A DNA stretch of 60,599 bases from a virus. Its lineage: Duplodnaviria > Caudoviricetes. Position numbers and translations under genes: made by a program. Under the pieces are notes generated by a model, which saw nothing but the letters and a program-made list of their open reading frames with translations, had not been told where the DNA came from and ran no database searches. The stretch covers positions 1 to 60,599 of IMG/VR virus record IMGVR_UViG_3300048856_000135; one strand, 5' to 3'. Within the stretch, counting starts at the first letter, position 1. Each line of letters opens with the position of its first letter. Positions 8,397 through 60,599 of the stretch are shown here, piece after piece.

Positions 8397-8449
8397 TCAT
8401 CAGCTGCAGCTGTCTTGCATGCAGTTGCAGCTATTCAAGTCAACAGAAT

Positions 8450-8791
8450 ATGAAAAAGATCGTATACATCGCACATCCAATTGGCGGAGACGTTCAAGGA
8501 AACGTCAAAAAACTTCAGGCCATCTACAGGCAGATTTCGCTGCAGGAGCCGCTTGTTACTCCCTTCATCCCTTACATCGCAACAGTTCAAAGCTTAGATG
8601 ATTCAGTACCTGCCGAGCGGAACATTGGCTTTGCCCACAACTTCGAGTTTTTCAAAAAAAACGTGATCGATGAACTGTGGTTATATGGACCGCACATCAG
8701 CGTAGGTATGCAGGTAGAGATACAGTGGGCAATGGAACTGGGCATCCCCGTGATTTCAAAAACAGCAGGAACCAGCCTACAAAAACACTAG
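8450..8791 (+). CDS. DUF4406-like / nucleoside deoxyribosyltransferase-fold protein
   Basis: VYIAHPIGG...DELWLYG..ISVGM..EI.WA.ELGIPV. Confidence 0.7.
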   Translation: MKKIVYIAHPIGGDVQGNVKKLQAIYRQISLQEPLVTPFIPYIATVQSLDDSVPAERNIGFAHNFEFFKKNVIDELWLYGPHISVGMQVEIQWAMELGIPVISKTAGTSLQKH

Positions 8792-37805: not shown

Positions 37806-39011
37806 TTAGCTAACTAGCCGCATAAAGCCCGCATTACACATAAATGAATCGTTCATAATATCCATACCGGTCCGCTTGTCCTGCTCGTTGACGTGAACAT
37901 AAATCATTGTGGTGGTAATTTTCGAGTGCCCCATGATCTTCTGCAACGCCACCACATCTTTAGTTTGCCGGTAGTAGTGCGTGCCGAAAGTGTGCCGCGC
38001 AACGTGGAAGGTCAGCTTCTTTCTAATGTTCACTCCGTCCATAGCGGCAATGTCTTTCAGCGACCGGTTCATTTCTTGCTCCGTAGGGAGATTAAAGAAC
38101 TTACCAGTTTTCCGCTCGATTAAGTTCTGAGCGATCCTGGATAATGGTATCTGTACTTCCTTTTTGAAGCGCCTGTTCTTCCATGGAATAAAATGCATTT
38201 CATTATTTAGCTGCACCCAGCCCCATTCAGCACGATAGACGTCCGAAACGCGGATTGAGGTAAAACAGCTAAACAGGAAAGCTCTAAGCGTTTGCTGTCT
38301 AAGATCATCCAGGCGGTTCGACAGATATAATCCTGTAAGCCGGTTTATTTCGTCCTCTTCCAGATAGATCAGTGATGGAGCCGGAGGAGTATTAACATAA
38401 TTTTCAAAATCTTTATTCAAGCTGATACCTTCCTCCATCGCTAGATGCAGATATGTTTTGATGTCTTTAATCCTGCCCCAGATAGTCGCATCATCATTCT
38501 TATGCCTTGTGCTTAGATGTACCTTAAAACGCTGCAGCAATTTCCTATCAGTAGCGTAAAACGGAATTGAAGTTTTGAATTTCTTGAGCCGGTTCAAAGT
38601 GCCAATATTGTTCAGTCGGGTTCTATTGGAAATTTCCTTGTATTTGAATCGATCTGCAATCTTATGCTCCATGTAGGCAAGAAAATCCTTTCGCAAGTCA
38701 ATGTTCCGGAGTTCATCAATAAATAAGTCCATGGACAAAACCTTATCCTGGATGCGGTAGACCTTGAAAATCTCATTTACTTTCTGCAGCTCATTGGCGA
38801 TGATCAACTGATAGTCATTGAAATCAGCATCGCGCTTGCTGCGCGGCTTCATGGTGCCAGCCTTGTTATCAACAAGGTGTGCTGGCCACGACAGATTCAA
38901 AGGGATTGGTTTGCTTTCCCGATTGATGATCACTAGCAAATAAAGGGAAGCATTCCCGTTTTTCTGGACCCGGTTAGAATTGCATTTAAGTTTTACGGAA
39001 TAGCTTACCAT
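37806..39011 (-). CDS. int: Tyrosine integrase of prophage A
   Basis: Arm-binding N-terminus; FSCFTSIRVSD, FHVARHTF, MGHSKITTTMIY. Confidence 0.95.
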   Translation of the reverse strand: MVSYSVKLKCNSNRVQKNGNASLYLLVIINRESKPIPLNLSWPAHLVDNKAGTMKPRSKRDADFNDYQLIIANELQKVNEIFKVYRIQDKVLSMDLFIDELRNIDLRKDFLAYMEHKIADRFKYKEISNRTRLNNIGTLNRLKKFKTSIPFYATDRKLLQRFKVHLSTRHKNDDATIWGRIKDIKTYLHLAMEEGISLNKDFENYVNTPPAPSLIYLEEDEINRLTGLYLSNRLDDLRQQTLRAFLFSCFTSIRVSDVYRAEWGWVQLNNEMHFIPWKNRRFKKEVQIPLSRIAQNLIERKTGKFFNLPTEQEMNRSLKDIAAMDGVNIRKKLTFHVARHTFGTHYYRQTKDVVALQKIMGHSKITTTMIYVHVNEQDKRTGMDIMNDSFMCNAGFMRLVS

Positions 39012-39088
39012 AAAGATTGGTGTGTGTTTTTTTGATGTTAAAACAATGTTGAAACAAAGTGTAACTAATCACCAATTTTATGCTTTTA

Positions 39089-39123
39089 AAAAACGGCCTC
39101 TACGTGATGTAAAGGCCGTTTTT
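39089..39123. terminator. Bidirectional hairpin terminator
   Basis: AAAACGGCCT...AGGCCGTTTTT. Confidence 0.6.
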
Positions 39124-39154
39124 AGGTTTTTCCCTCTAAAGGTATCAGAGGGGG

Positions 39155-39172
39155 TGTACCCAGCGCCGGAGT
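39155..39172 (-). other. Probable att core, tRNA-Leu 3'-end fragment
   Basis: Reverse complement ACTCCGGCGCTGGGTACA resembles T-arm/acceptor 3' end of Bacteroidota tRNA-Leu; lies between two integrases; arm-like direct repeats at 39036/39047 and 39299/39311. Confidence 0.6.
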
Positions 39173-39331
39173 ACATAATCTTATACTTGTATATATCATA
39201 TTATACTTGAATATTGCCGTAAATCATTGTTAAACAGCGTTCTTTACCACCTACACGTGATAGCAACATATATTAAGATATATTAGAATATACACCGATT
39301 TGTATATATATTTGTATATAAAATAAAGGTA

Positions 39332-40573
39332 ATGATCAATCCGAAGTTCCATTTACAAGCCCTAAAATCGGCTAACGAAGGCGACTATCCTATCCTGATG
39401 TTGTTCAGTGTAAATAAAGCCAGACTCCAGTATTATACTGGCATCCGAATGCCTAAAAAATACCATGCGAAAAATGGGAAGTATCCATTTTCAAATAAGT
39501 GGCTAGAAGCGCCAGGAGTTAAGATGAAACTTGATGCTTTACTTAGACACGCCTACTCTATTGAGTCGGATTTGATCAAAGAAGGTGTCACTCAAACGGT
39601 CGATATTTTCCGAGAGGAACTGGATAAAAGATTTAAAGGCAGACAAGCCGAGAAAGTGAAGTCGTCAACTCTGGAAGATCGTATTGCTGAATACCTTGAA
39701 TATGTAAAGAATAACTTGGCATACAATACCTTCAAGAATAATCAATCCGGCTTAAACCATTTCAGGACGTTTTTAAGCAAAAAAGCCACAACCCTAAAGG
39801 TTTCAGACGTGGATGAAAATCTAATTGAAGGCTTCAACGATTACCTGAAAGCAGGCAGATTAAATAACACCGTTGTAAAAGCAATGCAGGTACTCAGGAC
39901 CTTTTTGCAGTACTGCCTAAAGAAGAAATACATCGCATCTCTCCCGCTCTTAGAAACCGGCAGCCCCAACAACATAACGGTAATTCACTTGAGCCATGAA
40001 GAGGTATTACAAATGGCTAATACTGCTATGCCCAGCCCAACTTTAGAGCGTGTAAGAGACTTTTTTGTATTTGGGTGTTTTACTGGTATGCGGTACTCAG
40101 ACATTGCCGGGCTGAAGAAGAGCAACGTTTTTAAGGACCACATCAAGTTTTTTATCCAGAAAAGCGGTGCAACCCAGGCATTAACTGTGCCCTTCACGCC
40201 AATGAGTAAAATGATCATCGACAAATACAAAGACATACCTGGCGAATATGCATTGCCATCAATAAGCAACCAAAAGACAAACGACTACCTTAAAGAGGTT
40301 GCAGCCCTGGCAGGCATCAACTCAGTAGTTGAAATTGCTCATAAAACAGCGGCCGGCCGAATCGAAAAAATTGAAACAACGAAGGATCAGCTTATCAGTT
40401 GCCATACAAGCCGTAAAAGTTTCATCACTATAGCCATGACGCTTGGCATGCCTGAAAGCGTGATAGTATCAATAACGGGCCACACTAAAGGATCTAAAGC
40501 TTTCCACAAATACTATGATGTAGTCAACTCGACGAAGTTCGACCAGATGGCTAAAATTTTTAATACAAACTAA
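39332..40573 (+). CDS. int: Tyrosine integrase of element B
   Basis: FGCFTGMRYSD, SCHTSRKSF, ITGH...FHKY. Confidence 0.95.
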   Translation: MINPKFHLQALKSANEGDYPILMLFSVNKARLQYYTGIRMPKKYHAKNGKYPFSNKWLEAPGVKMKLDALLRHAYSIESDLIKEGVTQTVDIFREELDKRFKGRQAEKVKSSTLEDRIAEYLEYVKNNLAYNTFKNNQSGLNHFRTFLSKKATTLKVSDVDENLIEGFNDYLKAGRLNNTVVKAMQVLRTFLQYCLKKKYIASLPLLETGSPNNITVIHLSHEEVLQMANTAMPSPTLERVRDFFVFGCFTGMRYSDIAGLKKSNVFKDHIKFFIQKSGATQALTVPFTPMSKMIIDKYKDIPGEYALPSISNQKTNDYLKEVAALAGINSVVEIAHKTAAGRIEKIETTKDQLISCHTSRKSFITIAMTLGMPESVIVSITGHTKGSKAFHKYYDVVNSTKFDQMAKIFNTN

Positions 40574-41793: not shown

Positions 41794-42111
41794 ATGGGCA
41801 TTAACATTTTAACAGAAGAACAAGCCAAAGCAATGGCAACCGAATGCGGCCTCGCTGCAGTGCAGATGTTCATTGAAAAATACCTGCCAGGCTTCCAAGA
41901 TTTTCAAAAAGCACCAACCCCGGCAGAGAAAGATCAAATGATGACTGTCAAAGAACTTGCAGAGTACTGGGGTTGCCACATCCAATCTATAAGACAGAAG
42001 AAGCGTAGCGGCGAGCTGCCTTTTTATCAGCATAAGCGAACCATCCTATTTAAAAAGTCTGAAATCGATGCGTTGACTGCCAATCCGCTTCCTAAAAAAA
42101 GAGGATACTAG
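41794..42111 (+). CDS. Excisionase/HTH_17 DNA-binding protein
   Basis: MTVKELAEYWG...GELPFYQ...ILFKKSEIDA. Confidence 0.85.
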   Translation: MGINILTEEQAKAMATECGLAAVQMFIEKYLPGFQDFQKAPTPAEKDQMMTVKELAEYWGCHIQSIRQKKRSGELPFYQHKRTILFKKSEIDALTANPLPKKRGY

Positions 42112-50751: not shown

Positions 50752-53700
50752 ATGGCTGGAGAATTAAACTATAAGGCTGGACTTGACATCAGCAACTTTA
50801 TTAAAAGCAGGGATGAGATACTAAAATCTTTCAAACAGCTAAAAGACGTAGGTGGAGTATCCCTTTTCGATAATAAACCTTTAACTGCATTCAAACAGGC
50901 TCAATTGAGGATGCAGGAATCTTTAAGGGATGCAAGGCTTGAAACCCAACGCTTAAAGAACGAGCAGTTGGAACTGAAGAAACAGCTTGAAGCTGGTAAA
51001 GTAACGGCACAAGCATATCGTACCGAAACAGCAAAACTCACAGCACAGCAAGCAGCTCTAAGAAGCGCTACAAAGTTAGCTAGAGACTCCCAGGGAGCAG
51101 TGAATGGATCGTATAAAGAGGCTCAATCACGTTTGGCAGCATTAGGAAGAGAGATCCGGAATACCACAGGAGGATTCACCAGCCAGTCACCAGCATTGAA
51201 GGCGCAAATACGCGAGTATAATGAACTTAATGACAAGCTAAAGAGCTTCGATGCCAGTATGGGTAATCATCAGCGTAACGTTGGTAATTACGGTGGTGTC
51301 TTAGGTGGTGTAGTTGGCAAACTTTCCGGGCTTGCTGCAGGGTTCTTATCTGCCCAGGCATTACTTACATCCTCATTTGATACCGCCCTAAGAACTGATG
51401 CAATCAAAACATCATTGGAATTCACATTTGATAGTGTTGATGTAGCAAAAGAGAAGATGGATGGCTTACGTGCAACATCCGAAAGATTAGGGCTTGAATA
51501 CATTGGTCTTGCTGATGCTTACAGAGCCTTTGCTGGTGCTGCAGTCGCTTCTAACTTTCCACTGACTGAAACAGACCGGATATTTAACGCGGTTGCCAAC
51601 GCCGGCGCTAAATTGAAGTTATCATCTGATCAGGTCAGTGGTGCTTTAACCGCATTGCAGCAAATGATTAGTAAAGGTAACGTGCAGGCAGAAGAATTGA
51701 GAGGGCAATTAGGTGAGCGTTTACCTGGCGCCTTTGCAATTGCAGCCCGGGCAATGGGTGTTACGCAGCAGGAACTAGGGGAATTGATGAAGGCGGGGAA
51801 GATTACTGCTGATGAACTTCTCCCAAAGCTTGCCACTGAACTTGATAAAACATTTAAGAATGATACCACCGAAAAGGTTTCAAGCCTTCAAGGGGCTGTA
51901 AATAGGCTTAAGAACGCATTTACCGAAGTTGTAGAAACCAAAGGTGCAGTGAGCGCATTCTTTGAATTTGTAGTCGATAAGGCTGGTGCAACAGTTCGGG
52001 CAATTGGAGTACTTAGTAAAGCACTTGGAATCTTCTATGACCTAGCATCTGATCCAAAAAAGCTAATTGGCGACAGCGCGAGAGATTCCAGGAACAAAAC
52101 GAATACTGCAATAACCAGTAAAGCTAATTCCAGCGCCTCAACGGTAGCTAAGGATCTTGGCAAGTCGGAGTTGGTTGACCGGATCAATGCCGAGGTTACT
52201 GCGTTGAGAAGGATTAATGCCGAATATGAAAAATCCAAAAAGGTGTATGAAAGCGTTCGCGCCAGTGACAGGAGTTTAGCAGACACAAAACGTATACAAG
52301 CTGTTGAAGCAAATCTAAAGTACCAGCAGGCATTCGTGACCGGCTTAAAGAATGAGTTTGGGACCTTGTTTCCTGCCATTCAAAAATCAACACGGGAATT
52401 GAGTTCGATTGCTGCAATCCGGGCCGAAATCACCAGGTTATCCAAAATGGATGGATCCGCGACTAAGGGCAGTGATTCCTGGAAGAAGATACAGGACCTA
52501 AAAACGCAATTAAAGGAAGCGGCGGGTACTAGCGATAATTCTAAATCAGAAGCAAGAGAACATGAAAGCATGTTAAAGCGCCAACGTGCTTTACAATCAG
52601 AAATCGAAACCTTGCACGTAAATGCCGTTAAAAAGCAGAAAACTCAAGATGAACAGGAGATTGAAGCTGTTGAGATAAAGTATGATGCTATCCGGAAAAA
52701 GATCGCTGACTTCTATAGTGATCCGCGTAATACCGGTAGACAATATAAGGTCAACGTTTCGACCGTTAACAAAGATCAGTCTATTGAGACAGAAAATATC
52801 CTTGCTGATCAGCGGCTTAAAAAAGAACAGCAGACAATTGATGCTCAAAAAGTTTTGTTTAAAGAGTACGAGCAGTATAAGCTTGAAGTCGGTGTGCAGA
52901 TGGCAGATGATAGATTCAGTAGCGATTTAAAGGGTTACAAGACATTTGTTGATTATTTGAAAGGTCTTATGCCCTCAGAGAAAGATACATCAGCATACGC
53001 GAACAGAATGCGTGATATGTTAAGCAAAACTATCCCCGCCGCGACAAACGAGCAGTCAGAACAGCAGGAAAAGCGATTCAGCCAACTTCTCGTCGACACT
53101 CAGTCCTTTGAAACTCAAAGAAACCTACTGATTGAAAGATACACGAAGCAAGCATCTGATCTAAGAGCTAAGGGTTATGATAACCAGGCTGCCATGGCAA
53201 TTGCTTATGGCAATAAGGAATTAGAGCAGTTTGATTCTAATACCATTCAGCAAATCGAAGGCTATCGTTTTCTATTCGAAGGGTTCACTAGAATGTCAAC
53301 AGAGGCTATCGATCAGTACATTCAGAAAGCTAAACAGAAAGCCGACACGGATCTGGCACTAGGTCTTATCACGCAGAAAGCCTACGATCAGGTAATTGAA
53401 GCCATCAACAACTCTAAAGGTGCTTTAAATAGCGCAATACCAACTCAACTACGTGGTTTTGCTCAAATCTTCAAAGACCTTGCCTCCTCTACTGACGGTT
53501 TATCTAAGGGATTGACAAATGTTCTCAATATCCTAGGTGATATGGTTAATGCTGCAGCTGACGTGAAGCAAGGTATTTCCGACACAAAAAGTGCTATCGC
53601 CAATTACAAGGATAACAAAGCTGATGCGGGGGGTGGTCTACTTGGTACGCTTTCAGCAGGGCTCGCTATTGCTGGACCTGCTGGAAAAGCAATAAGTGCA

Positions 53701-54840
53701 GTTGTTGGTGTAGTAAAAGGCATTACAGGATTTTTCAAAGCTGCTAAGGAAAGTGCGAAACAGGCAGCTGCTGAATTGCAGGCTTATCAAGATAATGCTT
53801 TCAAGGGAGAAATTGCCTACAACCAGCTGTTACGTGAACGTGCAAGGACAATGAAGAGTATAGGCGATTTGTCGTTGTCAGAATTGAAAACCCAACAAGC
53901 AATCCTTGCAGCACAGAAAGGTCAGTCTCAGACCGATGCCGATAGATTACTTGCAAAAATTAGACTGTCAGGTCAGCAGATAACTGGAACCCATATTGAG
54001 AAAAAAGGTGGTTTCCTCGGTATAGGCAAAAAGAGCTACACCGTTCAGGATACTGCAGGTTTAGCGGGAGCCACCTACGAGCAACTAGAAGAGCTTTATA
54101 CTAGAGGTAAATTGACTGACGCTACTAAAGCCTGGTTCGAGGAATTGAAGAAAGCAAAAGAAGAAACCGATGGTATTGTTGATGCTGCAAAAGAAGCTCA
54201 AAACGCAATCAATCAAGCTTTGACCGGAACAACAGCAAACAGTATTGCTGATGCCATTATTAACGGTTTTAAGCAGGGCAAAAGAACAGCAGCAGACTTT
54301 GCAGATGATTTCAAAACATTGATGAGTGATGCTATGTACCGCGCATTGAGTGAAGACTTTTTAAATGAAGCGATCGCCGAGTTCTACAAAAAATTTGCTG
54401 AGGCTTCAAAAGATGGGCTAACTGAAACCGAAATAAAAACGCTCCGAGATAGTTATGCCGGAATAATCCAAGAAGGAGCCAGACAAGCAGAGAACATTGA
54501 GAAGGTTATTGGACCTTCTGCGGCCTCATCAGGCACCAAGCCAACAGGCATAACAGCCGAAATTGCAGACAAGATCACTCAGCAACAAGCTAGCGAACTA
54601 GCAGGATTATACCGGGCACAATATGACGTGAGTAAGAAGACAATGGCCTACACATTGGACGGCAATAAAGTGCGCATTGATTGCTTTAATATTGCCCGTC
54701 AGCATTTAGAGGTGGCTGTACAAAATGAGCGGAATACCTTTCGGACAGCCAATAACACGGAAAGACTAGCGGCTATGGAGGCCTCCTTGAAGGCAATAGC
54801 GAACAACACTTACTCACAATCAAGTAGAGCGTTGTTATAA
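50752..54840 (+). CDS. Tape measure protein, 1362 aa
   Basis: HQRNVGNY; tape-measure domain ALQQMISKGNVQAEELRGQLGERLPGA; long coiled coils. Confidence 0.9.
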   Translation: MAGELNYKAGLDISNFIKSRDEILKSFKQLKDVGGVSLFDNKPLTAFKQAQLRMQESLRDARLETQRLKNEQLELKKQLEAGKVTAQAYRTETAKLTAQQAALRSATKLARDSQGAVNGSYKEAQSRLAALGREIRNTTGGFTSQSPALKAQIREYNELNDKLKSFDASMGNHQRNVGNYGGVLGGVVGKLSGLAAGFLSAQALLTSSFDTALRTDAIKTSLEFTFDSVDVAKEKMDGLRATSERLGLEYIGLADAYRAFAGAAVASNFPLTETDRIFNAVANAGAKLKLSSDQVSGALTALQQMISKGNVQAEELRGQLGERLPGAFAIAARAMGVTQQELGELMKAGKITADELLPKLATELDKTFKNDTTEKVSSLQGAVNRLKNAFTEVVETKGAVSAFFEFVVDKAGATVRAIGVLSKALGIFYDLASDPKKLIGDSARDSRNKTNTAITSKANSSASTVAKDLGKSELVDRINAEVTALRRINAEYEKSKKVYESVRASDRSLADTKRIQAVEANLKYQQAFVTGLKNEFGTLFPAIQKSTRELSSIAAIRAEITRLSKMDGSATKGSDSWKKIQDLKTQLKEAAGTSDNSKSEAREHESMLKRQRALQSEIETLHVNAVKKQKTQDEQEIEAVEIKYDAIRKKIADFYSDPRNTGRQYKVNVSTVNKDQSIETENILADQRLKKEQQTIDAQKVLFKEYEQYKLEVGVQMADDRFSSDLKGYKTFVDYLKGLMPSEKDTSAYANRMRDMLSKTIPAATNEQSEQQEKRFSQLLVDTQSFETQRNLLIERYTKQASDLRAKGYDNQAAMAIAYGNKELEQFDSNTIQQIEGYRFLFEGFTRMSTEAIDQYIQKAKQKADTDLALGLITQKAYDQVIEAINNSKGALNSAIPTQLRGFAQIFKDLASSTDGLSKGLTNVLNILGDMVNAAADVKQGISDTKSAIANYKDNKADAGGGLLGTLSAGLAIAGPAGKAISAVVGVVKGITGFFKAAKESAKQAAAELQAYQDNAFKGEIAYNQLLRERARTMKSIGDLSLSELKTQQAILAAQKGQSQTDADRLLAKIRLSGQQITGTHIEKKGGFLGIGKKSYTVQDTAGLAGATYEQLEELYTRGKLTDATKAWFEELKKAKEETDGIVDAAKEAQNAINQALTGTTANSIADAIINGFKQGKRTAADFADDFKTLMSDAMYRALSEDFLNEAIAEFYKKFAEASKDGLTETEIKTLRDSYAGIIQEGARQAENIEKVIGPSAASSGTKPTGITAEIADKITQQQASELAGLYRAQYDVSKKTMAYTLDGNKVRIDCFNIARQHLEVAVQNERNTFRTANNTERLAAMEASLKAIANNTYSQSSRALL

Positions 54841-57108: not shown

Positions 57109-57393
57109 TTATTTATTCTTTTTAGCAATCTGGTCCTTGTGATGTTCAAGTATGTGGAGCACGACTTTCTCCGCCTCTTTACATTCAGGCGGTATCTCAA
57201 TGCCTAATCCGTGACAAACTCTACAAACCGTGATTGGCTTAATAACTTTGGATTTATCTGTGTAAGTAATAGTAACTTTTAAGGAGTCACCAATCTTACC
57301 TCTTCTCTTAAACTGCAACACCTCGCAATTATAATCTCTTGCAATGTCGCAGTCATTGTCAAGAACATACTCTATAAATCCACCTAGTGTCAT
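57109..57393 (-). CDS. HicA-like toxin (divergent)
   Basis: ATGA-coupled to HicB-like gene; ...IKPITVCRVCHGLGI ending; canonical GSH motif absent. Confidence 0.5.
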   Translation of the reverse strand: MTLGGFIEYVLDNDCDIARDYNCEVLQFKRRGKIGDSLKVTITYTDKSKVIKPITVCRVCHGLGIEIPPECKEAEKVVLHILEHHKDQIAKKNK

Positions 57394-57647
57394 GCCTCAG
57401 CTAATTTCAGAGAATAGGTTTTTTCAACTACTACTCCATCGTTAATAAAGTTAATTTCAGATTTTGCATCTTCTTTATTAAAACTAACCATGTAGTTTAA
57501 GGCTTTAAAGAGATTGTTTTCAACTTCTTCCTGAGTATCCCCTTCTGCAACCGCGCCGGGGAATTCTGCAAAGAAACCGGTGTAACCATTGTCATTCGGA
57601 TCCTGCACGTAGTAGGCCGTAAGTGGCAATTCGTTTGGGCTTTTCAT
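57390..57647 (-). CDS. hicB: HicB-family antitoxin
   Basis: GYTGFFAEFPGAVAEGDTQEEVENNL. Confidence 0.85.
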   Translation of the reverse strand: MKSPNELPLTAYYVQDPNDNGYTGFFAEFPGAVAEGDTQEEVENNLFKALNYMVSFNKEDAKSEINFINDGVVVEKTYSLKLAEA

Positions 57648-58119
57648 TTTATTTGGGCTTTAGGTTTTTTATATTGGTATTGCAATATACAACATCAGTA
57701 TAATATCTAATGTTTATATAATAAATTTTATTTTAAACTTTATTATAAAACGCATTTGCAATTACAGTACCACAAAGATACGCGTATTTAATATCATCTA
57801 TTGTAACAGGAGTATAATTAACACAACTATCTAGTATAGTACCTCCCTACAGAAAGGCATTCGCAAGACAACCTGCGAGGAACCAAAAAGGTGTATTTTC
57901 TACACCATGTGGAATCACTTCCCTGTTATTTAGTCCTCAACAACCTGCACTCAGACATTGAAGGCCTATTTTTCCACTGGCACCATGGTTGCTTAATGGA
58001 TTGTGTAAATAAATTTGGATTATGGGTTTGGTTGTTCTACATTAGTGATGCGAACCAAAATCAACAGATTCATTTACTTAACAGAGACTTTCTATAAGCA
58101 AACATTTTTTTAACAATAT

Positions 58120-58194
58120 TCTCAGGTGAACGGCTTAGACCCGTATCTCATTATTTCTCTGTAAAGAGTTGATGTTGGTTCGCAGCACCTGGGA
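58120..58194 (+). ncRNA. Candidate CI/C4-like antisense immunity RNA
   Basis: Closing stem TCTCAGGTG/CACCTGGGA, two internal hairpins; segment 58168-58184 complementary to 58049-58065 and to 58213-58225. Confidence 0.65.
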
Positions 58195-58211
58195 TTCATT
58201 TATTCAATGTT

Positions 58212-58529
58212 ATGCGAACCAACATTAGAAAAAACCAGAACAATCAGCTCCCTACTCAGGTTGAAGCTGTACAAATCACTATCAATGAGGATGACGTTAA
58301 CTACGCTATCAAGAAGCTAAGCCTTTACGACGATAGCTACTCTAGGGGGATTGTCACTGTATTCACTAGCTATCTTTCTCATAAGGAGTTCAAGAAAATG
58401 CGTGATGAACTTGATGAGGTGCCAAGAGTCAACGTATCCACCTATAAGCTGTGGGACTTTAGTACTCATGCAGGTTTTTTAGAGGTGATCTACCCAGTTA
58501 CAGAGAAAGGGGGTTGTGATGACAAGTAA
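58212..58529 (+). CDS. Hypothetical protein, putative antisense-RNA target
   Basis: Start region tgcgaaccaacat is complementary to the upstream RNA. Confidence 0.65.
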   Translation: MRTNIRKNQNNQLPTQVEAVQITINEDDVNYAIKKLSLYDDSYSRGIVTVFTSYLSHKEFKKMRDELDEVPRVNVSTYKLWDFSTHAGFLEVIYPVTEKGGCDDK

Positions 58530-58890
58530 GCACCGAATTAGCACCAGCAGCAGTGCTGTATCAAAAAAGCCACAGCGGATTACAATCGATCTTCAGTACC
58601 TAAATGCCGCTCAAGCTCAGCAGCTGATTAAAATGTTTGATGACCCTGAAGCATACGCTGAAAACTTCAGTGCATTGAAAGCAATCACAAAGGGCTTGTA
58701 TAAGATCATACTTGAGAGCAAGCCTGATCCAGATAGTCCACTTCCTCGGATGTTCCATACCGTAAACAACCTTCAGGGCATACTACTATTGGACGACATG
58801 CAGGAGGTTGATAGGATAACCCGTAATAGCGGATTAATGCCATACGTTGGATTTGGGGATCGTTCGCAGAAAGGAGCAGGTGATGAATAA
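58516..58890 (+). CDS. Hypothetical protein
   Basis: Overlap-coupled; ends KGAGDE. Confidence 0.6.
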   Translation: MMTSKHRISTSSSAVSKKPQRITIDLQYLNAAQAQQLIKMFDDPEAYAENFSALKAITKGLYKIILESKPDPDSPLPRMFHTVNNLQGILLLDDMQEVDRITRNSGLMPYVGFGDRSQKGAGDE

Positions 58891-59101
58891 GGCGCTAAAA
58901 CTATCTACAATCACGCTGGCTGCAGCATGCATATTCATGTTGCTTCATGTATGGGGGGCTCTGTAATGACCAGAGAAGTATTAATTTCATACGCAAGGTT
59001 CAGGTTAGCCATTTACATTGCTTGGCTTGACACCAATCCTCCTATAAGTGAGATAATTAAAGAGAACAATAAATTAGCTAAACAACTTAATAAAATAGAA
59101 A

Positions 59102-59377
59102 ATGGAAGGAGTATCAATCGTACCAACAAATGTACTTCAGGATTTGATCACCGAAGTGAAAGAAACCAGGGCCTACATCACCAAAATCAAAGAGGAACTG
59201 GAAATAGCTAGTTCAAAATACATGACCACCGCTCAAGTCTGCAAATACATAAACAAGTCTGAAAACTGGGTCCTGCTTCACAAGCACGATTTAGGTAGCA
59301 GCAAGAGATCCGGCACTCTCCTTTTCAAACGTGCTGACATAGACGAATTCATTAACTCCGATTACTTCAAAAAATAA
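59102..59377 (+). CDS. HTH_17/excisionase-like protein
   Basis: YMTTAQVCKYI...LLFKRADIDEFI. Confidence 0.8.
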   Translation: MEGVSIVPTNVLQDLITEVKETRAYITKIKEELEIASSKYMTTAQVCKYINKSENWVLLHKHDLGSSKRSGTLLFKRADIDEFINSDYFKK

Positions 59378-59382
59378 CAACC

Positions 59383-59670
59383 ATGGAAGAAAACACAGGT
59401 TTAAACCAAGGAATACTCGAACTTAAAACCATGGTTGGTGATCTGCAAGGACAGGTAAACCAATTGCAATACCAGATCGCGAAGATCACTAATCCTGTTT
59501 TAGATAAGCTGATGAACACAAAAGAAGTTGCAGACTACTTGCAGGTGACTACACAATGGGTGATTCTACACAGGCACGAAATAGGTTCGAGTAAGCGCAC
59601 TGGCAAATTAACATTTAAACGCTCTGACGTCGAGGTATTTTTGAAATCCGATTACTACAAGAAAAAATAA
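59383..59670 (+). CDS. HTH_17/excisionase-like protein, tandem paralog
   Basis: LMNTKEVADYL...LTFKRSDVEVFL; shares GSSKR.G and SDY.KK with previous gene. Confidence 0.8.
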   Translation: MEENTGLNQGILELKTMVGDLQGQVNQLQYQIAKITNPVLDKLMNTKEVADYLQVTTQWVILHRHEIGSSKRTGKLTFKRSDVEVFLKSDYYKKK

Positions 59671-59691
59671 GAATTCTCTCCTGGTAAACTT

Positions 59692-59718
59692 AACCCCTGC
59701 AGAAATGTGGGGGTTTTC
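59692..59718 (+). terminator. Intrinsic terminator
   Basis: AACCCCTGCA-gaaa-TGTGGGGTTTTC. Confidence 0.65.
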
Positions 59719-59796
59719 TCTTTGAGACTTGCTATCTAGAAAAAGTAGAATCCCCATCTTAGTAAATTGCGGGCTGAATATCAACCCGCAATACTA

Positions 59797-59997
59797 TTAT
59801 CTTCCGCAACAAGGGCATTCATTATTCCCTGTGGGGCCAAGGCTCTTATTGGTAGCTCCCCTTGCTCTTTCAGAAAGGTTAATTTTACCTGTATAACTTG
59901 ACTGCTCATACTCGTTGATAAATCTTATTACATCTTGTCTCTCTGCATCACTTAATTCGGTGTAGCCGCTTTTTACTTTATCAGATTTTACGCTCAT
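59797..59997 (-). CDS. Small protein ending in CPCCGR
   Basis: ATGA-coupled to upstream gene. Confidence 0.7.
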   Translation of the reverse strand: MSVKSDKVKSGYTELSDAERQDVIRFINEYEQSSYTGKINLSERARGATNKSLGPTGNNECPCCGR

Positions 59998-60599
59998 TGA
60001 TTAAAAAATTTATGTTTAAATGAAAAATTGCCACATACGTCGCAATCCGTTGATTTATGATTGTAAGCTATTTGTTTGCATTTAACACAAGCTTTTTGAT
60101 ATTCTCTTAAAGCAGTTCGCATGCCGTATCTACGTTCCCATTCTTGTATATTGTGTTTTCCATCCTGCTGACTACGATGATCATTTTCCGCATCTAACAT
60201 AATGAATGAGGCTTTCAACTCCTCGATATTGGGGGCAGAGAATGATGCTAGGTTTTTAAATCTAGTATTTAATGATGAATGATGGGCACCTGCTTCAATC
60301 GCGTATGAGTATTCGTCATCCCATTTGCTTAATGATGCCCATAAAGAAAGAATGAATTGAGCTAAACTTAAAGGAACGAATATGTATAAGATATTTTTAA
60401 AGTCCTCATCTATCCCGTATGCTAATGCGTAGCCACCAAGTACCCCAGGAAGAAGAAATCCTATTTTCGAAATCCAATTTAGCCTACTGCTATATCTGTT
60501 AGCCCGTTTTTCGAAAATCTTAGAATAGCCAAATGCGTGAAATTTTCGATCATGCGCGGTGTTACGCAGGATTTGTTCCGTAGTGTGTTGATCTTGCAA
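59994..60599 (-). CDS. Mobilome CxxCx(11)CxxC protein (2-TM, SLATT-like); start may lie outside window
   Basis: Two TM segments; C-terminal CVKC-x11-CDVC. Confidence 0.8.
   Translation of the reverse strand: MQDQHTTEQILRNTAHDRKFHAFGYSKIFEKRANRYSSRLNWISKIGFLLPGVLGGYALAYGIDEDFKNILYIFVPLSLAQFILSLWASLSKWDDEYSYAIEAGAHHSSLNTRFKNLASFSAPNIEELKASFIMLDAENDHRSQQDGKHNIQEWERRYGMRTALREYQKACVKCKQIAYNHKSTDCDVCGNFSFKHKFFNQ

Follow-up and report, generated by a model that had tools for sequence, protein, structure and literature searches.

A structured leader RNA family with a three-site antisense design in Bacteroidota, resembling in layout the immunity RNAs of phages P4 and P1

The c4 RNA of the phages P1 and P7 is about 77 nucleotides (nt) long, is processed from a leader and is complementary to sites both before and after itself, the downstream site covering the ribosome-binding region of the first gene in the immI region (c4-icd-ant). 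It pairs through two short antisense stretches (a'/b'), its 5' end is made by RNase P, and the P1 and P7 versions differ in their antisense bases, which results in different immunities. Typical of C4 antisense RNAs in general are a stable RNA of about 77-80 nt acting in trans and a place in the immunity region of a prophage or satellite, with antirepressor or replication genes under control. The CI RNA of phage P4 is described as processed from an untranslated leader and as causing termination by pairing with seqA and seqC, located up- and downstream of it (PMC4825925). PMC3632133 equates seqA and CI with the IsrK and C4 families and states that P1, P7 and N15 rely on structurally similar systems; IsrK of the Salmonella Gifsy-1 prophage is presented in PMC4825925 as an activator acting on its own read-through mRNA. 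In these papers, enterobacterial phages and satellites are the only carriers mentioned for RNA-only immunity like that of P4 CI and P1 c4 (PMC4825925, PMC3632133). The locus analyzed here lies in a provirus record from IMG/VR (IMGVR_UViG_3300048856_000135), the whole 60,599 bases of which are called the window below and which consists of two integrase-bearing elements, A and B, placed back to back. Near the right end of element B, where 564 nt separate a minus-strand gene (57390-57647) from the next plus-strand one (58212-58529), a leader carries a structured core RNA with an antisense stretch that is complementary to a site upstream of it and to the start of the gene downstream. Judged by its comparison with related loci, the feature represents a genuine structured RNA family with a three-site antisense design, for which support is strong and no earlier description was found, and a literature search with little coverage of subscription journals found no counterpart RNA in Bacteroidota.

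The core RNA of the window (58120-58194) is predicted to form a three-way junction, in which a closing stem of 9 bp, P1 (58120-58128 with 58186-58194), encloses hairpin 1 (58130-58144) and hairpin 2 (58157-58168, with a GTAA loop). The antisense stretch GTTGATGTTGGTTCGCA, or site 2 (58168-58184), occupies the junction strand that leads from hairpin 2 to the 3' side of stem P1. Its upstream partner, site 1 (58045-58065), is an imperfect 'decoy' that is complementary to site 2 at 16 of 17 positions over 58049-58065, while its downstream partner, site 3 (58213-58225), is complementary at 13 of 13 and forms a continuous stretch with the start codon, the ATG at 58212 (58212-58225 together). The distance between sites 1 and 2 is 102 nt and that between sites 2 and 3 is 28 nt. 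A U-rich spacer (58195-58211), which may terminate a short RNA or otherwise define its 3' end, follows directly after stem P1, and all of these features are on the plus strand. The initial annotation had proposed a switch of the P4 CI / P1 c4 type with these three sites, this start codon and a multi-hairpin of about 75 nt, and its coordinates for the sites and for the multi-hairpin, now resolved as stem P1 around hairpins 1 and 2, were exact.

Chance does not explain the three-site layout, as follows from its rarity in shuffled sequences. The 17-mer of site 2, searched with up to three mismatches, occurred at just three places in the 60.6-kb window, a number reached in none of 100 dinucleotide shuffles (mean 0.22), and a perfect 10-mer with its reverse complement both upstream and downstream appeared in only 2 of 5000 shuffles of 57648-58260. 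Folding alone was mildly unusual, with -23.9 kcal/mol for an 86-nt stretch (z -2.2) and -44.6 kcal/mol for a 201-nt stretch (z -3.1). What decides the matter is the comparison with relatives: the three sites and their fold were recovered, with compensatory changes, in 56 distinct related modules.

The protein encoded by the first gene after the leader (58212-58529, plus strand, 105 amino acids, aa) had eight relatives in a large protein collection, differing from one another at their N-termini (MRTNI, MQNNI and others). Intact loci with this gene family and with DNA at hand were the window, L002 from a Bacteroidota metagenome-assembled genome and L004, which was found by a search of 401 genomes of the L002 family; 235 genomes of the genus produced only two further loci of the 105-aa gene (L007 and L008), which were remnants without an intact leader and were left out. 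The three sites differed between these founding loci, yet matched one another inside each of them, with the addresses CGAACCAACAT in the window, CAGAACAACAT in L002 and CGAAGTACCAAA in L004. Compensating changes were present in the closing stem too, and the core fold of these three sequences had 51 of 51 cells paired and 7 of the 17 pairs changed on both sides. An in-frame TAA was present in the 105-aa homologue of L004 at about position 1640 (G299), though the leader RNA and the three sites were intact. Protein-based searches for relatives of the 105-aa protein in viral and metagenome contigs, DNA-pattern scans of metagenome and viral contigs and a blastn search of the module against phages and plasmids produced no relatives.

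A covariance model, R1, was built from the window, L002 and L004, the window copy scoring 108.6 bits. It gave 62 matches in 32 of the 151 genomes of a genus sample, with up to five per genome, matches in 13 of 151 genomes of a family sample, and a match in one of 151 genomes of a phylum sample, which was the query genome itself; these sets were samples, and absence applies to the genomes searched. The genus matches together with the window, L002, L004 and L006 resulted in 65 aligned copies, 46 of them distinct. After removal of duplicates, contig-end copies and those in which no ATGC followed the core within 25 nt, 59 module references were retained, 56 of which entered the structure-blind MAFFT alignment A7 (omitted were the upstream tandem copy L011:1055-1326, L068 and the weak match L071). 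Among the more divergent members of the family, L076, L077, L078 (with two copies) and L080 kept the three-site design, L081 was without a site 3 match and L079 had ATG followed by TAG.

Covariation in homologs, named in the initial annotation as a check on the three sites, was present in all three helix sets over the 56 modules. On A7, pairing held in 97.3% of the 951 cells of the core helices, and both sides had changed at 10 of the 17 pairs (110 cells), a covariation not reached by any of 500 shuffles, and slid controls paired at only 35-50%; on a model-fitted alignment, which leans to structure, 99.0% of 776 cells were paired and 14 of the 17 pairs had changed on both sides. G.U pairs were frequent in the core (19 of 56 modules at one hairpin-1 pair), which assigns its structure to the plus (sense) strand. 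Between sites 2 and 3, where 16 pairs were counted, the 12 nearest to the AUG were paired in essentially all modules, and 7 of those 12 had changed on both sides (in 12-30 sequences each, except for one changed in a single sequence), with neither the observed number of cells nor the covariation score reached in 500 shuffles. Unguided RNAalifold on the 319-column alignment recovered hairpins 1 and 2 and the site 2:site 3 helix (14 pairs), and a perfect run of 13-15 nt beginning at the U of the AUG was present in 48 of the 54 copies parsed by script (11 copies were unparsed). The helix of sites 1 and 2, with 17 pairs, was paired in 92.9% of cells and changed on both sides at 8 pairs. At two columns with G in site 2, site 3 invariably had C (24/24 and 30/30), and site 1 mostly had U (20/24 and 22/30). 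By this pattern, site 1 is a systematically wobble-weakened copy of site 3, and a U opposite a G in site 1 makes the pairing meaningful only for RNA or single strands, and only for this strand.

Several additional pairings were considered and not retained. A longer helix between the regions of sites 1 and 2 (58077-58087 with 58156-58166) was paired at only 59% across the family; a CAGCT/AGCTG stem in the coding part of the module, where RNAalifold had placed only two pairs, was uncompensated in L002-type sequences; and pairing of GTG (58045-58047) into the 3' strand of stem P1 was confined to the subclass of the window.

The strand preference of the pairing bears directly on whether the three sites, two direct and one inverted, might instead be operators for a DNA-binding protein, for example one with an HTH_17 domain. 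Repeated sites around a promoter and a start codon are typical of operators, their concerted change would follow a changed protein specificity, and HTH genes are indeed located downstream in the window. However, the C-to-U differences of site 1 from site 3, which keep the pairing with the G of site 2, would be meaningless for duplex DNA, stem P1 and hairpin 1 covary as RNA helices including G.U pairs, and the downstream genes differ completely between copies, leaving no common protein; operators are thus regarded as very improbable. A structure of single-stranded DNA, such as a single-strand promoter or an initiation signal in transfer or replication of the element, would accommodate both the strand specificity and the wobbles, G.T being tolerated in single-stranded DNA, and some copies do occur in mobile contexts. 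It would leave without explanation that the position of site 3 is tied to the start codon in 56 of 56 modules, with a constant spacing of 14-20 nt from stem P1, that the module starts close to the probable transcription start and has the orientation of the gene, and that many copies are without mobile context, and it is likewise given very little credence.

With respect to architecture, the target-RNA-target layout suggested in the initial annotation was real, conserved and operating at RNA level as judged from its pairing, and it is built like P4 CI, with the same topology in P4 C4. Both systems have an antisense RNA in the leader of the controlled operon and in the same orientation, with a target located upstream in that transcript and another shortly downstream, and the C4 RNA of P4 has, like the present core, a closing stem around two hairpins and the antisense on the 3' junction side; in the C4 consensus, a single-stranded stretch precedes the 3' strand of the stem. 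The P4 stretch 8433-8455, which spans this junction, is complementary to 8661-8676 upstream, inside the isrK element and separated by 212 nt, and to 8402-8420 downstream, after a 16-nt gap. The differences concern the closing stem (17 bp in the C4 consensus against 9 bp here), the downstream target, which is here the start codon itself with codons 2-5, the upstream target, which is here systematically weakened by wobble pairs, and the host, which is here a member of the Bacteroidota with up to five copies per genome, many of them outside prophages. The c4 RNA of P1 and P7 has two short antisense stretches, in contrast to a single one of 13-17 nt in the present family. P4 acts through transcription termination (PMC4825925); for the present family, control of translation is proposed.

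Energy calculations with the full leader of the 56 modules indicated that the states with site 1 paired to site 2 (1:2) and with site 2 paired to site 3 (2:3) were nearly isoenergetic (medians -40.3 and -40.2 kcal/mol). The lowest state was 1:2 in 36 modules, 2:3 in 19 and stem P1 in one, and the nested stem P1 state (-33.5) fell short of the two by about 7 kcal/mol. For the isolated core, by contrast, 38 of 56 modules had the stem P1 fold at the energy minimum or no more than 0.5 kcal/mol above it, and in a transcript of site 1 plus core 1:2 won over stem P1 in 55 of 56. According to this modelling, the stem P1 fold would be favored only without sites 1 and 3, which fits a released core. A U-rich tract after stem P1 was present in 55 of 56 modules (at least 5 T among 8 letters, counted from 0-3 nt after P1). 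At the level of the alignments, the covariation demonstrates three mutually competing helix sets, all under selection, one of which covers the start codon.

Bacteroidota start translation without a Shine-Dalgarno sequence, and initiation depends rather on an open, A/U-rich start region. In the preferred reading, the pairing of sites 2 and 3 would block translation initiation of the operon 58212-59670, while site 1 would hold site 2 off site 3 within the same transcript and leave that transcript translatable. The core closed by stem P1 would be released as a short RNA, with its 3' end at the U-rich tract and its 5' end cut free of site 1, and would expose site 2 and repress in trans those transcripts that carry a matching address. 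A free core acting in trans would give a reason for the covariation of stem P1. That the module is such a non-homologous analogue of P4 CI and P1 c4, controlling translation with a core acting in trans, is given about an even chance.

The addresses provide additional information on this point. Seventeen different 10-nt versions of site 2 were present among 64 copies from 35 genomes (L070, which is without the GCAG anchor, was dropped), and copies of the same genome shared a version in 1 of 47 pairs, compared to 4.4 +/- 2.0 in shuffles (P about 0.05). Such rare sharing of addresses within genomes lends weak support to action in trans.

The competing explanation closest to these data is a bistable leader acting only in cis, in which site 2 would pair either with site 1 (ON) or with site 3 (OFF) of the same mRNA, with no trans RNA involved and with the balance set by the folding order, by temperature, or by a protein or ligand bound at the three-way junction; it would explain most of the same data and is a serious rival, though less probable than the preferred reading. 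The near equality of the 1:2 and 2:3 states (lowest in 36 modules against 19), the choice of the site 2:site 3 helix in cis by RNAalifold, the highly conserved, aptamer-like junction and loop bases of the core, and the many copies heading single genes at chromosomal sites without mobile-element context all agree with it. On the other hand, a simple toggle does not need the covariation of stem P1, which moreover is about 7 kcal/mol less stable in the full leader; at least 17 concerted versions with only one shared same-genome pair are explained more easily if the address matters between molecules; and the layout mirrors that of P4, where trans action is established (PMC4825925).

The preferred reading, a P4 CI / P1 c4 analogue with a core acting in trans, is weakened by a number of points. 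Release of the core and its action in trans are inferred by analogy, and a cis-only switch would explain the three-way covariation equally well. A pseudoknot of stem P1 with 1:2 or 2:3 looks sterically possible, and the covariation of stem P1 therefore does not prove a free core. No further targets of site 2 were found in the window, which is also what a cis-acting leader would have. The within-genome address test is borderline at its P of about 0.05 and is confounded, the address partly following gene family and locus. Scanning of the whole window with the 4227 models of Rfam 15 gave no match at gathering score, including C4 (RF01695, gathering score 45 bits), isrK (RF01394) and riboswitches, and the reciprocal search of phage P4 with R1 found nothing (best 7.7 bits). 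Finally, the genes that follow the module belong to at least six unrelated families and occupy varied chromosomal sites, which weakens prophage immunity as its general role.

The Rfam comparison, which was another check named in the initial annotation, was unequivocal: at 57600-58600 neither C4 nor isrK appeared even at E<=10, and only eukaryotic models of microRNA, small nucleolar RNA and long noncoding RNA were listed, far below their cut-offs. Phage P4, used as the positive control in the same scan, yielded both families on its minus strand, C4 at 8420-8507 with 74.9 bits and isrK at 8615-8692 with 60.8 bits. Of the features of C4, the present family has the closing stem with two hairpins and a single-stranded 3' junction and the complementarity both upstream and downstream, while the C4 model itself gave no match. 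By these comparisons it would be a functional and architectural analogue of P4 CI and P1 c4 and is not a detectable member of their family; of the switch initially proposed, the architecture is supported, the module is not confined to prophages, and a processed 75-nt RNA, trans action and immunity are putative.

The likeness to IsrK, as described in PMC4825925, would extend to the combination of an mRNA leader with a short RNA acting on the same mRNA through alternative structures. A corresponding activator, in which a short terminated RNA would open its own read-through mRNA in trans and turn translation ON, could draw on the U-rich tract after stem P1, which could give such isoforms, and on the example of Gifsy-1 IsrK, which works from a similar leader position with short and read-through isoforms (PMC4825925). 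Yet IsrK activates translation, whereas the complementarity here predicts repression: the stretch that the core exposes pairs without a mismatch with the region of the start codon, and binding at this place should block initiation. The isrK model of Rfam does not match either, and an activator of this type is considered unlikely.

As delimited by its conservation, the self-contained leader module spans approximately 58041-58269. Conservation begins at about 58036-58041, and two metagenome DNA contigs match the window from 58041 on and differ before it. At the other end the module enters the open reading frame (ORF) as a plus-strand segment of codons 6-19 (58226-58269), conserved at nucleotide level and ending with GCTG. 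There the conservation stops sharply at GCAGCTG, at ORF nt 54-58 (58265-58269), and unrelated proteins follow. Over codons 7-19 the entropy by codon position was 0.28/0.43/0.33, without an excess at the third position, which indicates that the constraint is on the nucleic acid and not on the peptide. The AlphaFold2 model of the 105-aa protein (predicted local distance difference test score, pLDDT, 69.9) had a helical core and low confidence at residues 1-22 (<50 at residues 5-19), in agreement with a nucleic-acid constraint on the N-terminus; it matched no PDB entry at E<=0.001. The conserved part 58226-58269 could be a recombination joint or a translation-initiation element, and no RNA helix that explains it was found across the 56 modules.

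Called protein starts at an ATG inside site 2 were observed in L002 (2962-3000) and in P0003, P0004, P0005 and P0007, adding 'MLFCS...' or 'MLVRS...' to the N-terminus. The extension is probably an annotation artefact, since the equivalent ATG of the window is out of frame. The extended starts of P0003, P0004, P0005 and P0007 still record the site 2 sequence of their loci.

Beyond the module boundary, at least six unrelated ORF classes were distinguished, of approximately 100, 105, 158, 164-183, 201-222 and 211-212 aa. Their first genes, including the 105-aa gene of the window, had no Pfam, PHROG or PADLOC family, and the 178-aa class was represented in a protein atlas only by 'hypothetical protein' clusters. 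Address and gene class were reassorted relative to each other. The surroundings of six extended loci were equally diverse: one was 5 kb from a TMP_3 tape-measure gene, others were beside VgrG/DUF4280, beside SIR2-like and trypsin-like genes or among ordinary genes (LysR, GNAT, EamA; a PAS/HTH_18 regulator), and L031 and L032 were among ORFs with little or no Pfam annotation. Most other copies examined were outside prophages, in contrast to the window copy, which is in a prophage-like element ahead of uncharacterized genes and two xis-like genes. In L033 (1317-5647) the module is divergent to a gene for VgrG (Phage_base_V/GPD), an unannotated ORF of 286 aa and a PAAR-like DUF4280 gene (522 aa), a set which by its gene content is a type VI secretion-type island. 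Five loci had two module copies 300-600 nt apart, the upstream one being a remnant without a matching start site or gene (L011 1150-1591, L015 907-1591, L038 701-1104, L049 701-1094 and L050 701-1100), and they look as if cassettes had been inserted or exchanged at a conserved leader.

A conserved repeated sequence ahead of variable accessory genes is also a property of the integron-like rAID-1 arrays of Bacteroidales with their repeated intergenic sequences (bioRxiv 10.1101/471110). The likeness is one by description and serves as a lead only: no recombinase-linked array was present in the six extended loci, and among the 151 genomes of the phylum sample R1 had no match beyond the query genome.

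The promoter side lies outside the module. A TGGCAC-N5-TTGC motif (57978-57993, plus strand), the only match in the window (expected 0.16), was kept in L002, L004 (as TGGCAT) and L013; it resembles the sigma-54-type -24/-12 consensus, and genes with a sigma-54 DNA-binding domain were present in the three of three carrier genomes checked. As a candidate promoter of this module subclass it is a lead only. Downstream of it, the sequence TAAATTTG (58010-58017, plus strand), read directly from the DNA, was invariant in the window, L002 and L004 and resembles the -7 promoter element of Bacteroidota (TAnnTTTG), for which it is a candidate. Approximately 65-90 nt upstream of the sigma-54-type motif, a palindrome TTCTACAC-CATGTGGAA (57890-57914) overlaps a GGTGTA...TACACC hairpin. 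Palindrome and motif together were common to the window, L002, L004 and L013 and were not present in other module classes, which suggests a putative activator-dependent promoter for this subclass. Other classes had 21-nt tandem repeats upstream instead. In the class heading 178-aa genes, such a repeat was observed at L029 6039-6449 (19.6 copies), just upstream of the promoter region, and a 21-nt repeat at the same position was present in L012, L014, L016, L017, L021, L023, L024 and L026.

In the window, the first gene is followed by a second one of 124 aa (58516-58890, plus strand), in the same order as in L002, and, after a gap of 212 nt, by two xis-like HTH_17 genes on the same strand (59102-59377 and 59383-59670). 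Their Pfam matches (E 6e-6 and 5e-5) fell narrowly short of the curated cut-off, and weak PHROG matches to HTH/excisionase families were present as well. These genes, named in the initial annotation as the end of the operon, are downstream of the switch on its own strand, and no terminator-like site was called before the hairpin at 59692-59715 (plus strand); this is the sole plus-strand terminator-like site within 58200-60100 and likely the end of the operon. It is plausible from this order that the switch controls an operon ending in the xis-like genes. A metagenome DNA contig (run X3) agreed with the window as far as 58372 and once more from 58868 onwards, the two parts being joined by 131 unrelated letters, which indicates that in one relative other sequence has taken the place of the second gene and of the end of the first. 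On the other side, the UPF0150/HicB-like gene (85 aa, 57390-57647, minus strand) overlaps by 4 nt with its 94-aa partner, the pair spanning 57109-57647 and being transcribed divergently from the switch. A soil metatranscriptome (run X2) covered a small share of the window; its three contigs at 57120-57742, without differences from the window, covered the minus-strand HicB-like pair and its leader, and none fell on 58040-58230; being contigs, they are uninformative as to whether the RNA is made.

Element A ends at about 39.1 kb with a tyrosine integrase gene on the minus strand (37806-39011, 401 aa), and element B begins at about 39.3 kb with another one on the plus strand (39332-40573, 413 aa). 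The back-to-back arrangement of the integrase genes (37806-40573) identifies the 'provirus' record as two elements in tandem. Element B also encodes an AAA_25 protein, a BT4734-like N domain, a large terminase and a third HTH_17 gene (41794-42111), and its gene for 1362 aa (50752-54840) is read as that of a tape-measure protein by length and position. The element is only about 21 kb, yet it has the large terminase and this long tape-measure-like gene. In agreement with the initial annotation, no CI-type (HTH_3/S24) repressor was found among the approximately 25 ORFs of element B that were scanned, a set that did not cover every small ORF.

With respect to its wider meaning, the module might tentatively be seen as a portable, addressable riboregulator cassette, consisting of the promoter-proximal leader, the core, the decoy and the first 19 codons and recombined before unrelated accessory genes, with its at least 17 orthogonal addresses functioning as immunity or incompatibility groups; immunity of the P4/P1 type would then have been invented independently in Bacteroidota and generalized beyond phages. 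If this is true, copies within one cell would regulate only themselves, and incoming copies with a matching address would be silenced. The family would add to the RNA-only immunity systems a non-homologous example in Bacteroidota, either structurally convergent or very remote, with an unusually clean three-way covariation and a built-in, wobble-weakened decoy. Its many natural address variants are directly testable for orthogonality, and the module would offer ready-made parts for expression control in Bacteroidota. It also matters for gene annotation, the N-terminus of the ORF being, by the evidence above, partly dictated by the RNA switch and not by the protein.

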